42,877 nucleotides of DNA from a virus. A program made the position numbers and the translations under genes. Below the pieces are notes generated by a model. That model ran no database searches, was not told the DNA's origin, and saw only the letters and a program-made list of their open reading frames with translations. Shown here piece after piece: positions 1 through 42,877 of this stretch. The stretch spans positions 1 to 42,877 of the IMG/VR virus record IMGVR_UViG_3300029702_000014, one strand, 5' to 3'. Every line of letters starts with the position of its first letter. Position 1 is the first letter of the stretch.

Positions 1-99
1 GGTACACTTCTTACATTTTGAAATTTTTTTCACTTGAAACAGACGCATATCAGACTTTCTGCCACAAACAGGGCACAATGCGGTACAAAAGAGGTCATT
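1..99. repeat. 99-nt terminal overlap identical to 42779..42877 (circular closure or short terminal redundancy)
   Basis: Direct comparison of the two window ends shows the same 99-mer, GGTACACTTCTTACATTTTG...AAAAGAGGTCATT. A minus-strand ORF reads through the junction in frame. Confidence 0.95.
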
Positions 100-387
100 C
101 CCTTTGACAGACGGATTTTTATAAACGTCAATAATTTTCCATCCATTGATGACCTGGCCGATGTACTGCTCCTTTCTTTTTTTCAAAAATTCCTGACTGC
201 GCTGCCCTGCCATGCGGCGATTTGCACAAGCCTGACAGCTTGTGCTTTTTCCGTTTTTAAGGGACTGCCTATATACATCTCTCACGGTGCCGCATTCGCA
301 GCGGCATTTTACATAGCCGCTCTTTTCGGATGTACCTATCACAATCCAGCTCCCAAAAGTTTGACCCGTCAAATCTTTTGCTACCAT
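1..387 (-). CDS. AP2-domain DNA-binding protein with two zinc-ribbon-like Cys motifs, N-terminal part. ATG is at 387; the ORF continues across the circular junction into 42446..42778 (239 aa total).
   Basis: My translation of the minus strand from ATG 387 gives MVAKDLTGQTFGSWIVIGTSEKSGYVKCRCECGT...SCQACANRR...CPVCGRK. This joins in frame to the track ORF 42446..42856 ((387-78) is divisible by 3). Confidence 0.8.
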   Translation of the reverse strand, partial: MVAKDLTGQTFGSWIVIGTSEKSGYVKCRCECGTVRDVYRQSLKNGKSTSCQACANRRMAGQRSQEFLKKRKEQYIGQVINGWKIIDVYKNPSVKGNDLFCTALCPVCGRKSDMRLFQVKKISKCKKCT

Positions 388-400
388 ACCGGAATCCCCA

Positions 401-718
401 TCAAATCAGCCCATAGTGCTCTGCCAACAAAAAGCGGAGATACACAGGGCACGCACGCTTCTCGCTGCACCAGTCCTGCACAGTGCGAAGCGGGATGCCC
501 ACCTGCTTTGCAAAACCGGTCTGCGACAGGCCAGTACAGGCCACCATCTCTCGCACGTTCATGCGGGAAACATCCCAGAGATGGGACAAGCGGACGGTCT
601 CGGCGTCCAGATCAAGGTGCCCTTCAAAATCGTCCGAGATGCTGAGGGTGACGTTACCGAGAAAAACTTCTTTCGGCTGCTTGGCAGCCATGCCAAAAAG
701 TTCTGCATTGCTGTACAT
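401..718 (-). CDS. Small helix-turn-helix protein (XRE/MqsA-like HTH in the C-terminal half), candidate autoregulator of the leftward operon
   Basis: RBS AAGGAAG lies 6 nt before ATG 718. The C-terminus NVREMVACTGLSQTGFAKQVGIPLRTVQDWCSEKRACPVYLRFLL reads as an HTH. Confidence 0.7.
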   Translation of the reverse strand: MYSNAELFGMAAKQPKEVFLGNVTLSISDDFEGHLDLDAETVRLSHLWDVSRMNVREMVACTGLSQTGFAKQVGIPLRTVQDWCSEKRACPVYLRFLLAEHYGLI

Positions 719-784
719 GGTTGACTTCCTTTCTTTCAGATGGTAATATATTTGCGCACCTCCATGGTGCGTCTTTCACAAAAT

Positions 785-826
785 CCCCTGTCAGATGTTG
801 CGAGCATCCGGCAGGGGATTTTTTTA
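785..826. terminator. Bidirectional intrinsic-terminator-like hairpin between two leftward genes
   Basis: A 13-bp stem with one mismatch (CCCCTGTCAGATG / CATCCGGCAGGGG) and a 7-nt loop. It is flanked by AAAAT on the left and ATTTTTTT on the right. The T tract is weaker on the minus strand. Confidence 0.55.
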
Positions 827-827
827 T

Positions 828-1154
828 TTACAGGTTGATCCAGTCCTCGTACTCCTTGAGTGTCTCAACATACTGTGGGTAGAGGCGGCGGATGATGACG
901 TCCTTCTCCATGTCATCCAGATCGCCCTGCATAAGAGCTTCGGACTGCTCTTTAGTCAGCTCCATATCTGCGGTGATTGTCCACTCGGCGTCATCCTTGC
1001 TATGCACAAGGGCTCCGTCTGCATCAATGTGAGCGTAGATCGTCCAGACGATTTCGCCGTCCTCGCAATCCATGGTCTTGTATTCGTCAGGCTCCACCTC
1101 GGTGCCGTTCTCCATGACCTTTGCGGCGAACTCTTCAGCGTTAAGGATCTTCAT
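828..1154 (-). CDS. Extremely acidic 108-aa protein of unknown function, first gene of the leftward operon
   Basis: RBS GGAGGT lies 8 nt before ATG 1154. By my count there are 29 Asp/Glu against 9 Lys/Arg. Confidence 0.8.
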   Translation of the reverse strand: MKILNAEEFAAKVMENGTEVEPDEYKTMDCEDGEIVWTIYAHIDADGALVHSKDDAEWTITADMELTKEQSEALMQGDLDDMEKDVIIRRLYPQYVETLKEYEDWINL

Positions 1155-1202
1155 ATTTTTTTACCTCCATGTTGTTGTGTGCTTGTGTCTTTCACTGTCT
1201 TT

Positions 1203-1231
1203 AGTGTACACGCGTTGCGTGCAATTGTCAA
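1203..1231 (-). promoter_or_regulatory. Sigma-70-type promoter for the leftward operon
   Basis: The minus strand reads TTGACA, a 17-nt spacer, then TACACT. The spacer is occupied by operator copy 1210..1224. Confidence 0.6.
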
Positions 1232-1266
1232 GACTTTTTTGAAAAATTTATACGCGTTGCGTGCAA
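1210..1266. promoter_or_regulatory. Two identical 15-bp operator-like repeats, ACGCGTTGCGTGCAA, at 1210..1224 and 1252..1266
   Basis: Exact direct repeat spaced 42 bp apart. Each copy holds the palindrome ACGCGT and the dyad TTGC-NN-GCAA. Confidence 0.65.
1225..1253 (+). promoter_or_regulatory. Candidate divergent rightward promoter sharing the -35 region with the leftward one
   Basis: TTGTCA, a 17-nt spacer, then TTATAC (or TATACG with an 18-nt spacer). The second operator copy overlaps the -10/+1 region. Confidence 0.35.
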
Positions 1267-1273
1267 ATACTTG

Positions 1274-1312
1274 AGCGCTCATACAGCCCTGTGCTGTGTG
1301 GGCGCTTTTTTA
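1274..1312 (+). terminator. Strong intrinsic terminator about 20 nt downstream of the candidate rightward promoter and upstream of the cargo cluster
   Basis: 13-14 bp stem between 1274-1286 and 1294-1306 (2-3 G-U pairs), 7-nt loop CCCTGTG, followed by TTTTTTATTT. Confidence 0.6.
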
Positions 1313-1388: not shown

Positions 1389-1766
1389 ATGTGGCACAGA
1401 TTTAATCCAAACCCGCGCGGGAGCAGCGTCGGGGACTGCGTAGTGCGGGCGGTAGCTGCGGCCACCGGTCAGAGCTGGGAGCAGGCATATATTGCGCTGG
1501 CGCTCACCGGCTACGCCCTCGGCGATATGCCCAGCGCCAACCGCACATGGGGCGCATACCTCCAAAAACGCGGGTTCAAGCGCCGCATGGTGGAAGCAGA
1601 CTGCACCACCTGTTATACCGTGGCAGATTTTGCCCGGGAGTACCCGCGTGGCGTGTACGTGCTTGGCTGCTCCGGCCACGTTCTGACCGTGATCGACGGT
1701 GCGTGGTGGGACAGTTGGGACAGCGGCGCAGAATGCCCGATCTACTACTGGTATAAGGAGGAGTAA
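1389..1766 (+). CDS. Hypothetical 125-aa protein, tentatively a papain-fold Cys-His-Asp peptidase/amidase-like protein
   Basis: RBS AGGGAGGG lies 6 nt upstream. Cys sits in GDCVVRA, His in SGHVLTV and Asp in DSWDS, in papain-like order. This is motif reasoning only. Confidence 0.5.
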   Translation: MWHRFNPNPRGSSVGDCVVRAVAAATGQSWEQAYIALALTGYALGDMPSANRTWGAYLQKRGFKRRMVEADCTTCYTVADFAREYPRGVYVLGCSGHVLTVIDGAWWDSWDSGAECPIYYWYKEE

Positions 1767-1769
1767 ACG

Positions 1770-2219
1770 ATGCCTTACAATCCGTATGCGTATCAGATGC
1801 CGACATACTACGGCCAGCCAATGCCAGACAACCTCACTCAACTCAGGCAGGGAACAGGCTATCAGTCACCCATGATGCAGCAGCCGACAGCCCAGACAGC
1901 ACAAGCTGCGCCCTCCATCATCTGGGTGCAGGGAGAAGAGGGCGCAAAAGCCTATATGGTCGCCGCAGGCAACAGCGTGTTGCTGATGGACAGCGAAAAC
2001 AGCGCTTTTTACATCAAGAGCACCGACGCCAGCGGGATGCCGCTGCCTCTCCGCGTCTTTGACTACAAGGAACGCACCACGGCGACAAAAATGCCCCATC
2101 AGACGGCGCAGCAGCCCGGCGGGGAGTTTGTCACCCGAGCAGAGTTTGACGCTCTGGCAGCCCGCTGTGCGGCGCTCGAGAAGCAAGAGCCTGCAAAACC
2201 TGAAACGGAGGTCAAATAA
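1770..2219 (+). CDS. Hypothetical protein with a Pro/Tyr/Gln-rich N-terminus
   Basis: RBS AAGGAGGAG lies 6 nt upstream. The gene is 3 nt downstream of the previous stop. No recognisable catalytic motif. Confidence 0.7.
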   Translation: MPYNPYAYQMPTYYGQPMPDNLTQLRQGTGYQSPMMQQPTAQTAQAAPSIIWVQGEEGAKAYMVAAGNSVLLMDSENSAFYIKSTDASGMPLPLRVFDYKERTTATKMPHQTAQQPGGEFVTRAEFDALAARCAALEKQEPAKPETEVK

Positions 2220-2221
2220 GT

Positions 2222-2446
2222 ATGGCAAACTCTCTTTTTAACGCACTGGGCGGCGGTATGCCCGCCATGCCAAACCCTATGGGTCAGTTCGGGCAGATGA
2301 TGCAGCAGTTCCAGCAGTTCCGTGCAAACTTTCAAGGCGACCCGAAAGCAGAGGTGCAAAAGCTGCTGCAATCCGGCAAAATGTCACAAAACCAGCTGAA
2401 CCAGCTGCAGGCGATGGCGCAGCAGTTTCAGCAGTTTCTCCATTAA
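2222..2446 (+). CDS. Gln-rich 74-aa hypothetical protein
   Basis: RBS GGAGGT lies 9 nt upstream, tightly packed after the previous gene. QQFQQF motifs occur at both ends. Confidence 0.65.
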   Translation: MANSLFNALGGGMPAMPNPMGQFGQMMQQFQQFRANFQGDPKAEVQKLLQSGKMSQNQLNQLQAMAQQFQQFLH

Positions 2447-2509
2447 GTCGTAACCGTGGCCACGGTTCAAGCATAAAAATCATTCAAAACACACGAAAGG
2501 AGTACAAAA

Positions 2510-3286
2510 ATGTCTCTTTCTTCCGATTCTGCGGTTCTGACCATGCCCGTTCAGCCCGCAAACACCAACGGCAGCAACGGCTTTGGCTTTGGCAATGATG
2601 GCGCATGGTGGATCATCATCTTGTTCCTGTTTGCCTTCTGCGGCGGCTGGGGCGGCAACTGGGGCGGCAATGGCAACACCGGTGCCAGCGTCGTTGACGG
2701 CTACGTTCTGACCTCCGATTTTGCCAACATCGAGCGCAAGATGGATGGTATCAACAACGGCATGTGTGATGGCTTCTACCAGCAGGCGCAGCTTGTCAAC
2801 GGCGTGCAGCAGACCGTGAGCAACGGCTTTATGTCCGCAGAGATCAGCCGCGCAAACCAGCAGGCGGCGTTCATGCAGCAGCTGTTTGCCATGCAGATGC
2901 AGCAGCAGGAGTGCTGCTGCGAGAACCGCTCTGCCATTCAGGGCGTCAACTACAATTTGGCCACCCAGTCCTGCGAGACCCGGAACACGGTGCAGAACAC
3001 CACCCGGGACATCATCGACAACCAGAACCAGAACGCCCGCGCCATCCTTGACGCCCTGACCGCACAGCGCATCGAGGCAAAGGACGCAAAGATCGCTGAG
3101 CAGGGTCAGCAGCTGTTCGCAGCACAGCTTGCGGCATCTCAGGCAGCCCAGAACGAAACGCTCAAGGCCTACATGAGCGGTCAGCTGGCCTACTACAATC
3201 CGCGCCCCGTGCCCGCATTCCCGGTTCCTGCACCTTACCAGTACGGTAACTGCGGCACCGGTTGCGGCTGCGGCAGCTGCGCATAA
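2510..3286 (+). CDS. Membrane-anchored Gln/Asn/Cys-rich protein (one TM segment, Gly/Trp-rich flanks, ECCCE motif, CGTGCGCGSC tail)
   Basis: RBS AAGGAG lies 7 nt upstream. TM segment is AWWIIILFLFAFCGGWGG. A terminator follows at 3358..3385. Confidence 0.75.
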   Translation: MSLSSDSAVLTMPVQPANTNGSNGFGFGNDGAWWIIILFLFAFCGGWGGNWGGNGNTGASVVDGYVLTSDFANIERKMDGINNGMCDGFYQQAQLVNGVQQTVSNGFMSAEISRANQQAAFMQQLFAMQMQQQECCCENRSAIQGVNYNLATQSCETRNTVQNTTRDIIDNQNQNARAILDALTAQRIEAKDAKIAEQGQQLFAAQLAASQAAQNETLKAYMSGQLAYYNPRPVPAFPVPAPYQYGNCGTGCGCGSCA

Positions 3287-3357
3287 CCGAATCACGGCAA
3301 CTGACTGCAAATTGTATGTAGTCTGTTCAGCCCCTGAGCTGATTTTGCAAACCAGAG

Positions 3358-3385
3358 CGCCGGGGCAAAAGTCCCGGCGTTTTTC
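3358..3385 (+). terminator. Intrinsic terminator after the first cargo sub-operon
   Basis: Stem CGCCGGG / CCCGGCG (7 bp), loop GCAAAAGT, then TTTTT. Confidence 0.6.
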
Positions 3386-3404
3386 TATGAAAGGAGCCGA
3401 TAAA

Positions 3405-3827
3405 ATGGCCGAATTTTCTAATTCTAACATCGTCATCGTGGCGTCGGGTGAAAATCTTCCCCTGACAGAGACCGCGGTGAAAGCGCCTGCCTGCATCATG
3501 CACCGTGAGGGCAGCGGCCTTGTGACCATGCGGGGTCTGACCAATCAGTGCAAAGCACGCTTCAAGGTAAGTTTTGGCGGCAATATCGCCATTCCCACCG
3601 GCGGCACAGTTGGGCCCGTTTCCGTGGCGTTGGCTGTCGGCGGTGAGCCGCTGACCAGTGCGACTGCCATTGTCACCCCGGCGGCAGTCGAAAATTATTT
3701 CAATGTTTTCGTGTCCGCGTTCATCGAAGTGCCGCGCGGCTGCTGCGTGACCGTGGCGCTCAAAAATACCAGTACGCAGGCAGTCAGCATTGCAAACAGC
3801 AGTCTGATCGTTGAGCGGGTAGCATAA
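3405..3827 (+). CDS. Stand-alone BclA-C-terminal / C1q-TNF-like jelly-roll domain protein (140 aa, no collagen stalk)
   Basis: RBS AAAGGAG lies 8 nt before ATG 3405. Beta-strand-rich sequence ending NSSLIVERVA resembles the BclA C-terminus ...SASIIIEKVA as I recall it. Confidence 0.55.
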   Translation: MAEFSNSNIVIVASGENLPLTETAVKAPACIMHREGSGLVTMRGLTNQCKARFKVSFGGNIAIPTGGTVGPVSVALAVGGEPLTSATAIVTPAAVENYFNVFVSAFIEVPRGCCVTVALKNTSTQAVSIANSSLIVERVA

Positions 3828-3843
3828 GAAAGGAGATAAAGTC

Positions 3844-4245
3844 ATGCTGGATAAACTGAATCATCTGAAAGACGAAATGTGCGACGAGCTCATGGAACTG
3901 ACCGACAAAAAGAACCGCTCCCCGGGTGATGTTGAGATGATCGGCGAGATCGTGGACATCATTCTGGACATTCACCGCATCGAGGACTACTGCGAGGGCG
4001 GCGAGTACAGCCGTGCGGGCGAGTGGGAAGCTGACATGCGCGGGACTTTCGGCCGCGATGCCGGAAACGGTTACACCCGGGGCAACAGCTATGCCAACCG
4101 AGGCCGTCACTATGTGCGCGGGCACTACTCCCGCACGGATGGCCGTGAGCGCATGATCTCTGACATCGAGGACATGATGCAGGAAGCCACCGGCGCAGAG
4201 CGTGACGCCTACAAGCGTGCAGCTGACATCTTGCGCAACGCATAA
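3844..4245 (+). CDS. Hypothetical protein with helical ends and a central Gly/Arg/Tyr-rich segment
   Basis: RBS AAGGAGA lies 7 nt upstream. 133 aa. Confidence 0.7.
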   Translation: MLDKLNHLKDEMCDELMELTDKKNRSPGDVEMIGEIVDIILDIHRIEDYCEGGEYSRAGEWEADMRGTFGRDAGNGYTRGNSYANRGRHYVRGHYSRTDGRERMISDIEDMMQEATGAERDAYKRAADILRNA

Positions 4246-4263
4246 GGGAGGAGGGCGGCAGGC

Positions 4264-4593
4264 ATGGACATTGACGAGATCAATGAGCACATCCGAAAGC
4301 TCAAGTGCGAGGAAACCAGCTGGCAGAGCGTCAACAAGCTTGCCGCCCTCTGCACCGTGCGGGACGAACTGGAAGAAGCGCACGCACCTGAAACGCAGAC
4401 CCAGGCATTGCCGCCCGCGACTTATGCGGCGGCGTACTCCACGGCAGCGGAACCGCTAAGCGACTTTGTGGCGGCTGCCAGCTCTGTTCCTTTTGGCGGT
4501 CTGATGCAGGTACTTGACGAGCACATGAAGGCAATAAAGCTGGTGTACCCGAAAGAGTATGAGCTCGTAATGCGGAAGATAAGCGACTTGTAA
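4264..4593 (+). CDS. Hypothetical protein, last cargo gene before attP
   Basis: RBS GGGAGGAGGG lies 8 nt upstream. 109 aa. Confidence 0.65.
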   Translation: MDIDEINEHIRKLKCEETSWQSVNKLAALCTVRDELEEAHAPETQTQALPPATYAAAYSTAAEPLSDFVAAASSVPFGGLMQVLDEHMKAIKLVYPKEYELVMRKISDL

Positions 4594-4846: not shown

Positions 4847-4867
4847 CTAACAAACAATCTAACAAAT
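4847..4867. repeat. Two CTAACAAA(C/T) copies on the P' arm
   Basis: Copies at 4847..4855 and 4859..4867, matching 4665..4673. Confidence 0.4.
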
Positions 4868-6000
4868 CAGTACTTCATCTTCTGCATTTCCTGCAACAAA
4901 TAGGCCGGGTCGTTGTGGGACACGTACTTGTTGGCCGTGGTGGAGAAATTTTTGTGCCCAAGAATGGCCTGCACGGCGGTCTTTTCCAGGCCGCACTCCA
5001 CCATCTTACTGCTGGCCGTGTGGCGCAGCGTATGCGGATGCACCCCCTCTATGTGGCACTCCTGCATCAAGGCCCGAAACTTTGTAGCCACGTTGCGCTT
5101 GTCCAGCTTTGTGCCGGCCTTGGATGGAATCAGCCACTCACAGCCGCTATCAAGCATCCAAAAGGCAATGATCTTGTAAATGGGCTCAAGGATGGGGATG
5201 ATACGGTTCTTGCCTGCTTCTGTCTTTTCACCGCCCTGCATGTACCGCTCTTTCAGGTGCACATCCTCGCAGCGCATGGAAAGCAGCTCGTCGATGCGCA
5301 TGCCGGTATAAAGCAGCACCATTGCGATTTGCGCCGTCTGCCCAAATTTCGGGTCATTCTGTCGGATGCTGATCTGCTCGATCTCTTGTGCGGTCAGTGT
5401 GCGCTCTGCTTTTCCTGTAGCCGCCGGGAGCTGCAGCAGCATGGCGTAATTTTTGTTTATGATGTCCTGCGCCATTGCCCACTCGCATATCTGACTGAAA
5501 AGCGTGCGTTGCTTTTCGCAGGAGCTGCGGGAGAGACCCTTTTCAACCATCTGGTCAATCACTTGTTGATAATCTGCCGCTTTCAAGTCCCGCAATTGTC
5601 GGTCGTATAGCGGCGCAGCCTTTGCATAGGCCAGCTCGTACCCCTTTTGCATGTCCGTGCTGAGCTTGTCAAATTTGGGCTGCGATTTCCATTGGACATA
5701 GGCATCCGCAAAGGTGCACTTCAGACGCGCTGCTGGCGTGTTCTGAGCGTTGTAAGCGTCCAACGCTTGTACGGCTTCGCCTGCTGTTTCAAACGTCCCA
5801 AGAACGTCCCTTTGGGCTGTAAGCGCCACATACGGTCTTGCCCGCGCTCCACTCAGTTTATACACGCTGCCGCTGCCCTTGGGACGGCGGCGCTTTTTTC
5901 TTTGCTGCGGGGCGGCTTCCGGCTGCTTCTTCCCGCACCACGGACAAAAAGAAGCACCATCCGGGATCTCTTTCCGGCAGCATGGTCTCACGCATTTCAT
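4867..6000 (-). CDS. int: Tyrosine recombinase (phage integrase) with an N-terminal zinc-ribbon-like CxxC...CxxC
   Basis: RBS AAGGAG lies 6 nt upstream. C-terminal catalytic signature HTLRHT...ILGHKNFSTTANKYVSH. N-terminus CCRKEIPDGASFCPWCG. Adjacent to attP. Confidence 0.9.
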   Translation of the reverse strand: MKCVRPCCRKEIPDGASFCPWCGKKQPEAAPQQRKKRRRPKGSGSVYKLSGARARPYVALTAQRDVLGTFETAGEAVQALDAYNAQNTPAARLKCTFADAYVQWKSQPKFDKLSTDMQKGYELAYAKAAPLYDRQLRDLKAADYQQVIDQMVEKGLSRSSCEKQRTLFSQICEWAMAQDIINKNYAMLLQLPAATGKAERTLTAQEIEQISIRQNDPKFGQTAQIAMVLLYTGMRIDELLSMRCEDVHLKERYMQGGEKTEAGKNRIIPILEPIYKIIAFWMLDSGCEWLIPSKAGTKLDKRNVATKFRALMQECHIEGVHPHTLRHTASSKMVECGLEKTAVQAILGHKNFSTTANKYVSHNDPAYLLQEMQKMKY

Positions 6001-14502: not shown

Positions 14503-15357
14503 ATGGCACTTACTCGTTCCGGCGCACCCGCGCCTACTTCGTCCGTTTCAAACGCACAGTCTCTGGCAAACCGTTCCGTCCAGAACGCCAACCGTGCAGG
14601 CAGCACTGCTATGCAGGCCGCATCCCCGTCCGTTCCGGTGGAGATCACGGCTGCCGATGGCCAGCACTTCACCGTGAGTTTTGGCGACGTGCGCAACTTC
14701 ATCTGCCCCAAGGCCACCGATTCTGAATGCAAAATCTTTCTGGAGACATGCAAGCAGTACAAGCTGAACCCATTTACCAAAGAGGCTTACCTGATCCACT
14801 ACGACAACAAGAACGATGACACCGCCAGCACCATCGTGCTGGGCAAGAACTGCTACATGCAGATGGCCGAGCGCAACCCCAACTTTGACGGCTTTGAAGC
14901 TGGCGTGATCGTCCTGACCGCAGATGGCCAGCTGCTGAACCGTGAGGGTTCCATTGTCTATGATGGAGACGGCGGCGAGACCCTTCTCGGCGGCTGGGCG
15001 AAGGTCTACCGTAAGGACCGTACCCGCGCCAGCTACGAGGAAGTCAAGCTCAGCGAATACGACACCGGAAAGTCTCTTTGGAATGGCAAAAAGGCTACCA
15101 TGATCCGCAAGGTGGCGCTGGTGCACGCTTTGCGTGAGGCGTTCCCGTCTACCTTCGGCGCTCTGTACGATGAATGCGAGGTGCGTGTGGATGCCGAAAG
15201 CACCGCCCGCGAGGTGTCGCCTGAAGAGCTGCCGGTGCTGGATCCTTACGAAGGCTCCCACCGCCACCGCAAGACGGCAGGCACCCTGATCCCTGCCCCG
15301 GATGCACCCTCTGTAGAGGAAAACGCCGATGACCCGTTTGATGGTGATGATGCATGA
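14503..15357 (+). CDS. recT: RecT/Bet-family single-strand annealing recombinase
   Basis: RBS GGAGGT. Motifs ECKIFLETCKQYKLNPFTKEAYLIHY and MIRKVALVHALREAFP. Confidence 0.85.
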   Translation: MALTRSGAPAPTSSVSNAQSLANRSVQNANRAGSTAMQAASPSVPVEITAADGQHFTVSFGDVRNFICPKATDSECKIFLETCKQYKLNPFTKEAYLIHYDNKNDDTASTIVLGKNCYMQMAERNPNFDGFEAGVIVLTADGQLLNREGSIVYDGDGGETLLGGWAKVYRKDRTRASYEEVKLSEYDTGKSLWNGKKATMIRKVALVHALREAFPSTFGALYDECEVRVDAESTAREVSPEELPVLDPYEGSHRHRKTAGTLIPAPDAPSVEENADDPFDGDDA

Positions 15358-20281: not shown

Positions 20282-20357
20282 ACTCTGGTAGCTCAATTGG
20301 CAGAGCGATGGTCTCCAAAACCGTAGGTTGCAGGTTCAAGGCCTGCCCAGAGCGCCA
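20282..20357 (+). tRNA. trnW: tRNA-Trp (anticodon CCA), CCA encoded
   Basis: Manual cloverleaf: D arm GCTC-AATTGGCA-GAGC, anticodon arm ATGGT-CTCCAAA-ACCGT, T arm GCAGG-TTCAAGG-CCTGC. The acceptor stem has an A1:C72 mismatch. Confidence 0.85.
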
Positions 20358-26695: not shown

Positions 26696-26726
26696 GCGGT
26701 TGGCGCACAGCGTCAGCCGCTTTTTA
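26696..26726 (+). terminator. Intrinsic terminator
   Basis: 10-bp stem GCGGTTGGCG / CGTCAGCCGC (two G-U pairs), loop CACAG, then TTTTTA. Confidence 0.6.
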
Positions 26727-26727
26727 T

Positions 26728-26804
26728 GCCGTTTTAGCTCAGTCTGGCAGAGCACCGGACTTTTAATCCGGGGGCCGTGGGTTCAAGACCCACAAGCGGC
26801 ACCA
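26728..26804 (+). tRNA. trnK: tRNA-Lys (anticodon TTT), CCA encoded
   Basis: Manual cloverleaf: acceptor GCCGTTT / AAGCGGC, D arm GCTC...GAGC, anticodon arm CCGGA-CTTTTAA-TCCGG, T arm GTGGG-TTCAAGA-CCCAC. Confidence 0.9.
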
Positions 26805-26879
26805 CACCGGCAGCACGTCCGGCAAATAAACCTTATTGCCAAGCATGGCAGCCCGAGCAAGGGCAGAAAGGACTATCAC

Positions 26880-27470
26880 ATGGCACTCAAAAGAGCTGAC
26901 ATCCGCACGATTCTGGAGAATCCCGAAACCTCCAACGATGACAAGGCCAAGGCCATTCTGGACGCCCTGCACAAGGAGACAGACGAACTCAAAGACCAGC
27001 TGGATGCAGAAAAAACAGCCCGCACACAGGCCGAGAAAGACCGGGATGCAGCCAACGGCGGCAAGGAAGCCGCAGAAAAGGCGCTGACCGAATACAAGGC
27101 CCAGCAGACAGCAGCGGCCAGCAAGGCGGCCAAGACCGCTGCATTTAAGCAGCTGCTCAAGCAGGCGGGCGTGCTGGAAAAGTACATCGACGACATTGCC
27201 GACGACTCCAAGAAGGGCGACGAATTTGCCGCCGGTCTGGAACTGGACGCCGACGGCAAGGTGAAAGACGCCGAAAAGCAGCTTTCCAGCATCAAAACCA
27301 CATGGGGCGGCAAAATCGCCACCACCAAAACCACCGGCGCAAAGGTGGACAATCCGCCCACCAGTTACGCCGGGACTTCTCCCGAGGATTTCAAAAAGAT
27401 GAGCCTTGATGACCGCATCAAGCTCAAGAACAGCAACCCCGAGCTGTACCAGCAACTCCGGGCAAAGTAA
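26880..27470 (+). CDS. Scaffolding protein
   Basis: 196 aa, highly charged, Ala/Lys/Glu-rich and helical. Immediately upstream of the capsid gene. Confidence 0.7.
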   Translation: MALKRADIRTILENPETSNDDKAKAILDALHKETDELKDQLDAEKTARTQAEKDRDAANGGKEAAEKALTEYKAQQTAAASKAAKTAAFKQLLKQAGVLEKYIDDIADDSKKGDEFAAGLELDADGKVKDAEKQLSSIKTTWGGKIATTKTTGAKVDNPPTSYAGTSPEDFKKMSLDDRIKLKNSNPELYQQLRAK

Positions 27471-41951: not shown

Positions 41952-42129
41952 CCGGCAGCAGATGACAGCAGCCATCAAAAGCGCACCGCTTGGGAGGGTA
42001 GACCGTAAGATAGCCTTACTGCGGTACGTTGAGCGGCTCCCGCTGCCGGACATTGCAGCACAGACACATTACAGCCGGACGGCGATAAGCTACCGGCTGA
42101 AAGGCATTGAAAAAATGCTGAATGCGTGA
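41836..42129 (+). CDS. 3' part (frame B, +1 relative to frame A) encoding a sigma-70 region-4-like HTH
   Basis: VDRKIALLRYVERLPLPDIAAQTHYSRTAISYRLKGIEKML. There is no RBS before the TTG at 41836, and frame B is closed upstream at 41818. Confidence 0.55.
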   Translation: MPCLAIWYATPGSCRSLFGSVLPVAAARVVLPAALQGLDRQQMTAAIKSAPLGRVDRKIALLRYVERLPLPDIAAQTHYSRTAISYRLKGIEKMLNA

Positions 42130-42187
42130 TATAATATTTGTACCGTCCGAAGTAGCGTACACACACTTCGGAGAAATGTGTACAGAG

Positions 42188-42227
42188 AGCCAGCGGAAGA
42201 ACGTTTACCCGCTGGCTTTTCTTTTTG
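42188..42227 (+). terminator. Intrinsic terminator ending the long rightward late operon
   Basis: Perfect 9-bp stem AGCCAGCGG / CCGCTGGCT, 12-nt loop, then TTTCTTTTT. Confidence 0.7.
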
Positions 42228-42236
42228 CACGAATTG

Positions 42237-42245
42237 TGGTATAAT
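42237..42245 (+). promoter_or_regulatory. Extended -10 promoter TGGTATAAT
   Basis: TG-n-TATAAT read directly. There is no good -35 at 17 nt. Confidence 0.4.
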
Positions 42246-42251
42246 AATCTC

Positions 42252-42452
42252 AACAAATCCTCCCGGCCTCTCGGAGAAGCGCATTAGGGTGGATATTTGC
42301 CAGCTAGCCCAGTGCTTTATCTGGGAATGAAAAAAGCGGTTGCCAGATAGGTGCCGGCCAGTCTCCCGCCCGCCTAATTGCAGTGCGTACCATGTGAGAG
42401 ACGCATAAAACCCCCGGTGTTCCGTTTGGAGCATCGGGGGTCTTTCTATTTT
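42252..42452 (+). ncRNA. Candidate ~200-nt non-coding transcript between the extended -10 promoter and the bidirectional terminator
   Basis: The only RBS-less + strand ORF here is 7 codons long. Internal hairpin CCCAG-TGCTTTAT-CTGGG. TTGCCAG(C/A)TAG occurs twice. Confidence 0.3.
42410..42452. terminator. Bidirectional intrinsic terminator; ends the leftward AP2 operon and the candidate ncRNA
   Basis: Stem ACCCCCG / CGGGGGT, flanked by ATAAAA on the left and CTTTCTATTTTTT on the right. Confidence 0.6.
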
Positions 42453-42877
42453 TTCTCTTTTTTGATTTCTTCGAGACGTCTTGCAAGCTCTTCTTCCCAT
42501 CCCTCATGTTCTTTTAGAAATGGGGCGTATATCAGCTCTTCAGCTGCTTTGCGGGCCGCAACGGCTTCCTCGATTGTATCATGGGTTCCAAGATATGTCT
42601 TGTGTCCTTTAAAGCAAATTACAGCGCGGTAACGATTTTTGTCTTTGAAAACGCCACTGTGCCCTGTGGTCGAGTTTTGATTAACCTTCCCGCTAAGACG
42701 CGACTTTACAGATACAAGGCTTGATCCATCCACATCCGCTTCACGATGAATCGTATCAGAGGCGAGCTTGACGTTATTGGTACACTTCTTACATTTTGAA
42801 ATTTTTTTCACTTGAAACAGACGCATATCAGACTTTCTGCCACAAACAGGGCACAATGCGGTACAAAAGAGGTCATT
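42446..42877 (-). CDS. AP2-domain DNA-binding protein, C-terminal part. Its 5' end continues at 387..1 through the circular junction; the last 99 nt here duplicate 1..99.
   Basis: AP2-like segment HSGVFKDKNRYRAVICFKGHKTYLGTHDTIEEAVAARKAAEE. In frame with the ORF that starts at 387. Confidence 0.8.
   Translation of the reverse strand, partial: NDLFCTALCPVCGRKSDMRLFQVKKISKCKKCTNNVKLASDTIHREADVDGSSLVSVKSRLSGKVNQNSTTGHSGVFKDKNRYRAVICFKGHKTYLGTHDTIEEAVAARKAAEELIYAPFLKEHEGWEEELARRLEEIKKEKK
42779..42877. repeat. Right copy of the 99-nt terminal overlap
   Basis: Identical to 1..99. Confidence 0.95.

Follow-up and report, generated by a model that had tools for sequence, protein, structure and literature searches.

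A candidate anti-defence operon of acr-aca-like architecture in a temperate Faecalibacterium phage

Faecalibacterium is among the most abundant bacteria of the human gut and, to our knowledge, there is hardly any information on the means by which its phages overcome host defences. A leftward operon in the virus record IMGVR_UViG_3300029702_000014 (IMG/VR), which we analysed over positions 1 to 42,877 (42,877 nucleotides (nt), hereafter the window), raises this question directly: do its strong promoter with internal repeats, its first gene for a very acidic protein of 108 amino acids (aa; A108) and its second gene for a helix-turn-helix (HTH) protein make up an anti-defence operon of the anti-CRISPR (acr-aca) type, as a first-pass annotation from the letters alone had proposed? 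The proposed architecture is supported by a conserved promoter with an operator in its spacer, by perfect co-variation between operator and recognition helix, by at least five families of cargo and by a homologue of A108 encoded in one operon with a homologue of AcrIC5. The operon is probably an autoregulated cargo-plus-regulator unit of acr-aca type, with an acidic cargo most likely inhibiting an immune effector that handles nucleic acid. We hold the regulatory half of this model with high confidence, based on anatomy and comparative evidence, whilst the anti-defence half, which draws on architecture and association, is moderately favoured.

The promoter is near consensus and lies on the minus strand where the first-pass annotation had placed it (Table 1). 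The two identical 15-bp repeats described there were also recovered, with exactly two copies of the 15-mer ACGCGTTGCGTGCAA in the window (1210-1224 and 1252-1266), which lengthen to 18 nt each (1207-1224 and 1249-1266) if one mismatch is allowed and have starts 42 bp apart. A 13-bp dyad forms their functional core; in the promoter it fills the spacer that separates the two hexamers, -35 and -10, and the second, upstream copy matches it at 12 of 13 positions. One exact 15-mer pair in 43 kb is not rare (approximately 0.9 expected by chance, by our own estimate); the pair is significant because it lies inside the promoter and is conserved in relatives. Because the dyad occupies an optimal 17-nt spacer between near-consensus hexamers, repression by occlusion is indicated rather than activation. 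The ribosome-binding site (RBS) GGAGGT lies 8 nt 5' of the ATG of the acidic open reading frame (ORF), and the leader is kept in relatives regardless of which cargo gene follows. Part of the leader motif, GTGAAAGAC...CATGGAGGT (1160-1195, minus strand), is duplicated at 750-779 (minus strand), directly after the cargo terminator; this duplication may be what is left of an earlier tandem cargo cassette, or may serve as a flank for recombination when cassettes are exchanged. Elsewhere in the window, a near-perfect operator dyad, CACGCAAAGCGTG, occurs within a coding region at 15124-15136, possibly by chance (3.4 matches expected at up to two mismatches).

To place these elements in a comparative frame, the upstream gene and promoter were examined in each of 80 viral and 5 genomic loci encoding relatives of the HTH protein. 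Promoter design was constant whatever the cargo (TTGAC[AT], a 17-nt spacer with a 13-bp dyad, TATAAT), and a second upstream dyad stood at the same 42-bp spacing in 67 of the 69 two-site loci. The operators fell into three classes, each with its own class of recognition helix (helix 3): O1, CACGCAAYGCGTG, with ..RTVQDWC.EKR.. (28 loci); O2, CGCTCAWTGAGCG, with ..RT.QGWC..(E/T)R.. (51 loci); and O3, CACYCAWTGGGYG, with ..RT.QNWC.. (4 loci). Operator and helix class were concordant in all 83 scored loci and discordant in none. The operator lies upstream and the HTH gene downstream of the cargo gene, and each main cargo family was seen with at least two classes; a match between operator and helix that persists across cargo replacement is what a cognate repressor-operator pair would predict. 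A dimeric HTH of the Xre type and the 6-bp half-sites of the dyad also fit well, and the sequence evidence as a whole suggests that the HTH protein binds these operators and represses the promoter.

The gene directly upstream of the HTH gene belongs to at least five unrelated families of small proteins, four of them acidic. These comprise A108 (net charge -20, 37 loci), the strongly acidic B70 (70 aa, net charge -13, 28 loci) and D57 (57 aa, net charge -10, locus L138), the moderately acidic C139 (139 aa, net charge about -10, 16 loci) and E115 (115 aa, net charge 0, 1 locus), and for none of the families searched was a known function found. Replacement of one cargo by another is exact, with the leader up to the RBS and the terminator hairpin after the stop codon both conserved. 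Two units stand in tandem at L138, the first reading promoter-D57-hairpin-HTH-terminator and the second using the same promoter, both operators and the leader to drive an A108 homologue alone, a layout which implies that the acidic gene is controlled by this operator even outside the regulator's operon. This arrangement fits the control of neighbouring anti-defence operons that is reported to be frequent among Aca proteins (PMC13551039). Homologues of A108 without this HTH protein were found in the second cassette of L138, at L001 and at L157, and large low-GC phages carry a homologue within a long run of small ORFs that have no known function.

The composition of A108 is as extreme as the first-pass annotation had described, with 29 Asp/Glu against 9 Lys/Arg residues, a net charge of -20 and a pI of 4.06; its charge density is 0.185 per residue, compared with a maximum of 0.108 elsewhere in the phage (crude gene set). 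The family is tiny and found only in metagenomes: a set of 5.8 billion proteins yielded 23 clusters at 90% identity and a set of 1.84 billion yielded 28 representatives. Conserved positions and in-frame indels in its alignment indicate that the gene is real. An AlphaFold2 model (pLDDT 91.5) predicts a helix at the N terminus, then three strands, a short helix and, at the C terminus, a long one. Foldseek found no match to this model in the PDB (best E = 0.39), the A108 profile had none among PDB sequences, comparison with Pfam, PHROGs, NCBIfam and PADLOC gave nothing above noise and tblastn against 50,697 phage records returned no match. The kinship with Ocr or ArdA that such a composition might suggest was thus not found, either in Pfam or by Foldseek against the PDB. 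The top Foldseek match in BFVD was a 179-aa 'AcrIC5-like domain-containing protein', which is weak (E = 0.012, TM 0.38, 65 columns), and a tblastn search of the phage collection for this protein found it not to be present. An assignment of the C-terminal helices of A108 to an AcrIC5 domain was rejected, as the hhalign probability of a match with 14 AcrIC5 homologues was 0.9% and none of 23 A108 family members matched PF22147. By these searches A108 belongs to no detectable described family, including AcrIC5, Ocr and ArdA; charge mimicry of DNA is plausible, and A108 would be a good candidate inhibitor of bacterial immunity.

The second gene encodes an HTH protein, as anticipated. Its AlphaFold2 model (pLDDT 92.8) has seven helices, of which residues ~52-101 superpose on Xre proteins (3bs3, 3omt, 7vjn, 4yba and others) with an rmsd of 1.5-2.8 Å, in agreement with the five-helix HTH domain of the Xre/lambda-repressor-like superfamily. 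Foldseek gave Xre repressors such as Aca1, HigA/HipB and C-proteins probabilities of 0.96-1.0 at an rmsd of 1.5-2.5 Å. The structural neighbours included a Bacteroides DNA-binding protein, the HipB and HigA2 antitoxins, Aca1 of JBD30 and restriction-modification (R-M) controller proteins, whilst the N-terminal three-helix part had no structural match. The family, with 598 clusters, is far larger than that of A108. Membership of a named Aca family was not found: no Pfam match, whether to DUF1870 (Aca2) or to another family, was above threshold (HTH_3, E = 0.019), the HTH profile matched nothing below E = 0.25 among PDB sequences, which include chains of Aca1, Aca2 and Aca10, and the similarity to Aca1 is at the level of the fold only, the same as for many Xre proteins (the Aca3-14 HMMs were not among the profiles compared). 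The regulator is a generic Xre-fold protein outside the named Aca families, and one that probably serves as an Aca-like autorepressor of the operon.

Between cargo and regulator genes a hairpin is present as the first-pass annotation reported, although at 780-822 rather than at 785-826 (Table 1). Its pairing is kept in relatives through compensatory base changes, and it is predicted to act as a leaky intrinsic terminator, or attenuator, separating the two genes. Facing it on the plus strand is a promoter-like site (721-749, TTGACT-17-TGnTAATAT), antisense to the RBS of the HTH gene, of which the -10 element is retained in relatives with differing surrounding sequence; seven T residues follow the hairpin on the plus strand (780-830). 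A cis-antisense RNA of ~70 nt over the leader of the regulator gene could arise from this site.

A link to a validated inhibitor came from an unrelated lineage of gut phages (L001-L005), in which a 95-aa homologue of A108 (49% identity) opens an operon beside the terminase genes. The gene order is acidic 95 aa, acidic 102 aa, acidic 198 aa, 240 aa, HTH (65 aa, HTH_3/HTH_19), 51 aa and a double-zinc-ribbon (DZR) protein, and the 51-aa product is a true homologue of AcrIC5 (PF22147, 54.4 bits against a cut-off of 27; PDB 7YHR, E = 6e-7), a validated and broadly distributed inhibitor of type I-C CRISPR-Cas (PMC7913775). As in the window, the A108 homologue comes first, an HTH gene lies inside the operon and a dyad, GGCCAAAATTGGCC, occupies the 17-nt spacer of the promoter (TTGCAA-17-TATACT); the HTH protein and operator of that operon are unrelated to those of the window. 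AcrIC5 itself is small and very acidic like A108, but the two are not homologous. The DZR protein recurs at L175 (41% identity, E = 7e-46), where the gene immediately downstream encodes a distant homologue of the regulator of the window, so that the two types of operon are linked through a second shared gene. At L175 itself (MT835558.1, 1626-2821) the regulator homologue (38%) is preceded by an acidic 81-aa ORF and the DZR protein. AcrIC5-like ORFs with 42-50% identity to the L001 protein were also observed in MG945373.1 and KT264799.1, which are Microviridae genomes from gut samples.

On the model that we favour, the promoter would fire upon phage entry, when the regulator is absent, and the first gene would yield a burst of the acidic protein. 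Most transcripts would stop at the leaky hairpin, with read-through giving smaller amounts of the HTH protein and of the zinc-ribbon/AP2-like product of the third gene. As HTH dimers accumulate they would bind the dyad in the spacer, probably in cooperation with the upstream copy, which lies four turns away on the same helical face, and occlude RNA polymerase, holding the operon at a low steady level that would extend to the prophage. The acidic protein, meanwhile, would most likely block an immune effector of the host, one that binds nucleic acid. The parts of this scheme that we infer are operator binding and repression, attenuation at the hairpin, when expression takes place, and the anti-defence activity with its target.

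The same regulation could serve a cargo not aimed at immunity, an accessory ('moron') or host-takeover factor such as one that inhibits the host's RNA polymerase, DNA repair or cell-division proteins, or an anti-repressor or superinfection-exclusion factor expressed from the prophage end. Phages also use small acidic proteins to inhibit targets that have no part in immunity. The operon lies in an accessory region of the prophage, flanked by the lysis/tail end and the integrase side, neither the cargo nor the neighbouring genes at 1389-4593 have any known function, and the homologue in large low-GC phages sits within long unannotated arrays of small ORFs. Nevertheless, we consider such a role unlikely, though a real contender, as a homologue shares its operon with a true AcrIC5 homologue, the quick exchange of unrelated and mostly acidic cargo behind one regulator is a signature of an arms race, and a burst followed by shut-off is the control that suits the needs of anti-defence genes (PMC13551039). 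Several points weigh against the anti-defence model itself: no known anti-defence protein could be related to A108 through Pfam, PHROGs, PDB sequences, Foldseek or the hhalign comparison with AcrIC5, its best BFVD match is weak, the association with AcrIC5 is guilt by association resting on one other phage lineage, and the compared loci are phylogenetically close, so that they represent far fewer independent events than 83.

Two further explanations concern the regulatory pair. A type II toxin-antitoxin module in reverse order (higBA, mqsRA or hipBA-like), with the first gene as toxin and the Xre HTH protein as antitoxin and autorepressor, would account for the two-gene layout, the palindromic operator in the promoter, the structural resemblance of the HTH domain to HigA2 and HipB and its weak match to a Pfam Xre-like antitoxin HTH (E = 0.072). 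It was rejected as highly improbable, given a cargo of charge -20 with no toxin fold or family in Pfam, PHROGs, NCBIfam, PADLOC or the PDB, the replacement of one cargo family by another, a terminator that would set the 'toxin' above its 'antitoxin', and the A108 homologues that occur without this HTH protein, which show that there is no obligate coupling. We attach just as little credence to the idea that repeats and HTH protein are not a repressor-operator pair at all, the dyads being sites for another factor or for recombination and the HTH protein regulating something else or acting as an activator. The dyad inside a gene at 15124-15136 speaks for this idea, but operator and recognition-helix classes co-vary perfectly across cargo swaps, the dyad sits in the optimal spacer of a near-consensus promoter that needs no activator, and a dimeric Xre HTH agrees with 6-bp half-sites. 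An autoregulated operon with a probable anti-defence cargo accordingly stays our preferred explanation.

Characterized acr-aca operons with HTH Aca repressors include acrIF1-aca1 of Pseudomonas phage JBD30 and acrIF8-aca2 of Pectobacterium phage ZF40 (PMC6765145, PMC9410906, PMC8633003, PMC13551039). Shared with them are a strong promoter that contains or is overlapped by inverted repeats, a small cargo gene in first place with the gene for a small dimeric HTH protein downstream, one family of regulator combined with many unrelated cargo genes, and a regulator that can also control an adjacent operon through the same operator (L138). In contrast, the regulator of the window has no sequence relation to Aca1-Aca14 in the Pfam and PDB searches and carries an extra conserved N-terminal three-helix domain, a terminator-like hairpin separates it from the cargo, a third, zinc-ribbon/AP2-like gene follows it, and three specificity classes of operator and repressor co-exist. 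None of the window-type cargo is a validated Acr, and the host is a gut Firmicute, Faecalibacterium. The locus thus works like an acr-aca operon but fits no named Acr or Aca family, and a literature search for anti-CRISPRs of Faecalibacterium phages found nothing specific.

Other systems resemble the locus in part. A Firmicute parallel is provided by the AcrIIA1-controlled acr loci of temperate Listeria siphophages, which lie near the lysis end of the prophage and in which an HTH autorepressor acts on a palindrome in the acr promoter; AcrIIA1 is, however, unrelated in sequence and is at once an Acr and a repressor, whereas regulator and cargo are separate proteins in the window. R-M controller (C) proteins (C.AhdI, C.Esp1396I, C.Kpn2I) are, like the window's HTH protein, small dimers of Xre fold, and bind paired dyads (C-boxes) at their own promoter to time the genes downstream, a layout similar to that of the window. 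They differ in lying upstream of the endonuclease gene that they control and in being both activator and repressor, whilst the window has a small acidic cargo and a promoter that is already near consensus. The DNA mimics Ocr, ArdA, AcrIIA4, AcrIF2 and AcrIC9 share with A108 a small size, a very high density of negative charge, a phage origin and early expression, the last of which is a prediction for A108, but A108 has no sequence or fold match to any of them; its alpha-beta3-alpha2 order of elements is presumably shared with AcrIIA4.

Table 1. Coordinates of the operon and of other features in the window.
Feature	Position	Strand	Description
Sigma-70-type promoter	1231..1203	-	TTGACA, 17-nt spacer, TACACT; 10/12 consensus positions
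O-proximal (proximal operator, putative)	1207..1224	-	core CACGCAACGCGTG at 1209-1221
O-distal (distal operator, putative)	1249..1266	-	core 1251-1263 reads CACGCAACGCGTA on operon strand; centre 42 bp upstream of O-proximal
5' leader	1155..1196	-	CA-rich, motif GTGAAAGAC; RBS GGAGGT at 1168..1163; transcription start predicted
Cargo gene A108	828..1154	-	108 aa; predicted alpha1-beta3-alpha2 fold; candidate anti-defence protein
Inter-gene hairpin	780..822	-	GC-rich, then UUUUGUG; arms 780-797 and 805-822; RNA fold -25.4 kcal/mol, z = -4.6
Regulator gene	401..718	-	105 aa; N-terminal three-helix domain of unknown type, C-terminal Xre-type HTH
Third gene, 5' part	1..387	-	two Cys-rich zinc-ribbon-like modules
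Third gene, 3' part	42446..42778	-	AP2-like C-terminal domain, sub-threshold
Hairpin ending operon	42410..42441		strong; convergent bidirectional terminator, shared with plus-strand non-coding stretch 42143-42452
Hairpin and T-run	1273..1307	+	just upstream of O-distal; conserved in part of relatives
Seven rightward genes	1389-4593	+	diverging from operon; PHROGs 3754, 21718, 22984, 16490, 20016, 28802, all function unknown
Integrase gene	4867-6000	-	
tRNA-Trp (CCA) gene	20282-20357	+	within structural gene block
tRNA-Lys (UUU) gene	26728-26804	+	within structural gene block; overlaps program-listed ORF 26700-27470

The setting of the operon is that of a temperate Faecalibacterium phage without a close named relative. 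Bases 1-99 of the window are identical to 42779-42877 (a 99-bp terminal direct overlap), indicating a circular assembly of 42,778 bp, so that features near either end of the window need to be read across the junction. Structural genes form a long rightward block, the endolysin region is 78% identical to its counterpart in Faecalibacterium phage FP_Lugh, and homologues of the regulator occur in Faecalibacterium genome bins and include one protein named from F. prausnitzii. Within GenBank, MT839879.1 is the sequence closest to this region, and it has a different cargo gene. One feature that needs the junction is the third gene of the operon, which starts at 387 and ends at 42446 (239 aa) and follows the HTH gene in 75 of 84 loci. 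The first-pass annotation had called its product an AP2/zinc-ribbon DNA-binding protein; the zinc-ribbon-like modules stand, matching part of PHROG 374, but the AP2 match does not reach its threshold (PF00847, residues 168-210, 16.8 bits against a cut-off of 33.3, E = 0.0086), and the PDB match to the AP2 factor WRI1 is weak.

Convergent with the operon end is a non-coding stretch of ~310 nt on the plus strand (42143-42452; 42107-42452 together with its promoter), opened by a near-consensus promoter (TTGAAA-17-TGnTATAAT, 11/12) and containing a terminator-like hairpin (~42190-42225), a second extended -10 element (~42237-42245) and the terminal hairpin at 42410-42441. For the stretch near 42.1-42.45 kb the folding score is z = -3.9, and one or two small RNAs of the phage may be encoded there. 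An Rfam scan detected only the two tRNAs, with no family for the leader, the hairpin or this stretch. At the other end of the operon, the hairpin at 1273-1307 likely insulates it from the divergent rightward genes. Their block is found at the prophage end, adjoining a tRNA-like attachment region and the integrase, and the product of 2510-3286 has a Gly/Trp-rich hydrophobic segment. PADLOC matched neither these genes nor those of the operon to any defence system, and the operon was accordingly rejected as a defence system in its own right.

Overall, the locus is a useful lead for the discovery of anti-defence genes in phages of gut Firmicutes, and one that will not surprise a specialist. A wider and more tentative proposal is that A108, B70, C139 and D57 are four new inhibitors without structural precedent, acting on immune systems of Faecalibacterium that need not be CRISPR-Cas. 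They would be carried on ORF-sized cassettes that recombine precisely, with a conserved leader on one side and a conserved terminator on the other. The HTH protein would then found a new Aca family, its three specificity classes having diverged in the manner of phage immunity types so that co-resident phages avoid cross-repressing each other's anti-defence genes. In practical terms, the regulator and its operator provide a searchable signature marking candidate anti-defence genes in gut Firmicute phages, and the cargo adds at least four new candidate inhibitors without a known fold. The three matched specificities of operator and repressor lend themselves to studies of how HTH specificity evolves and to the design of orthogonal genetic switches, and if any cargo inhibits a Cas effector, for example that of the type I-C system targeted by the co-occurring AcrIC5, it may also become a useful tool.

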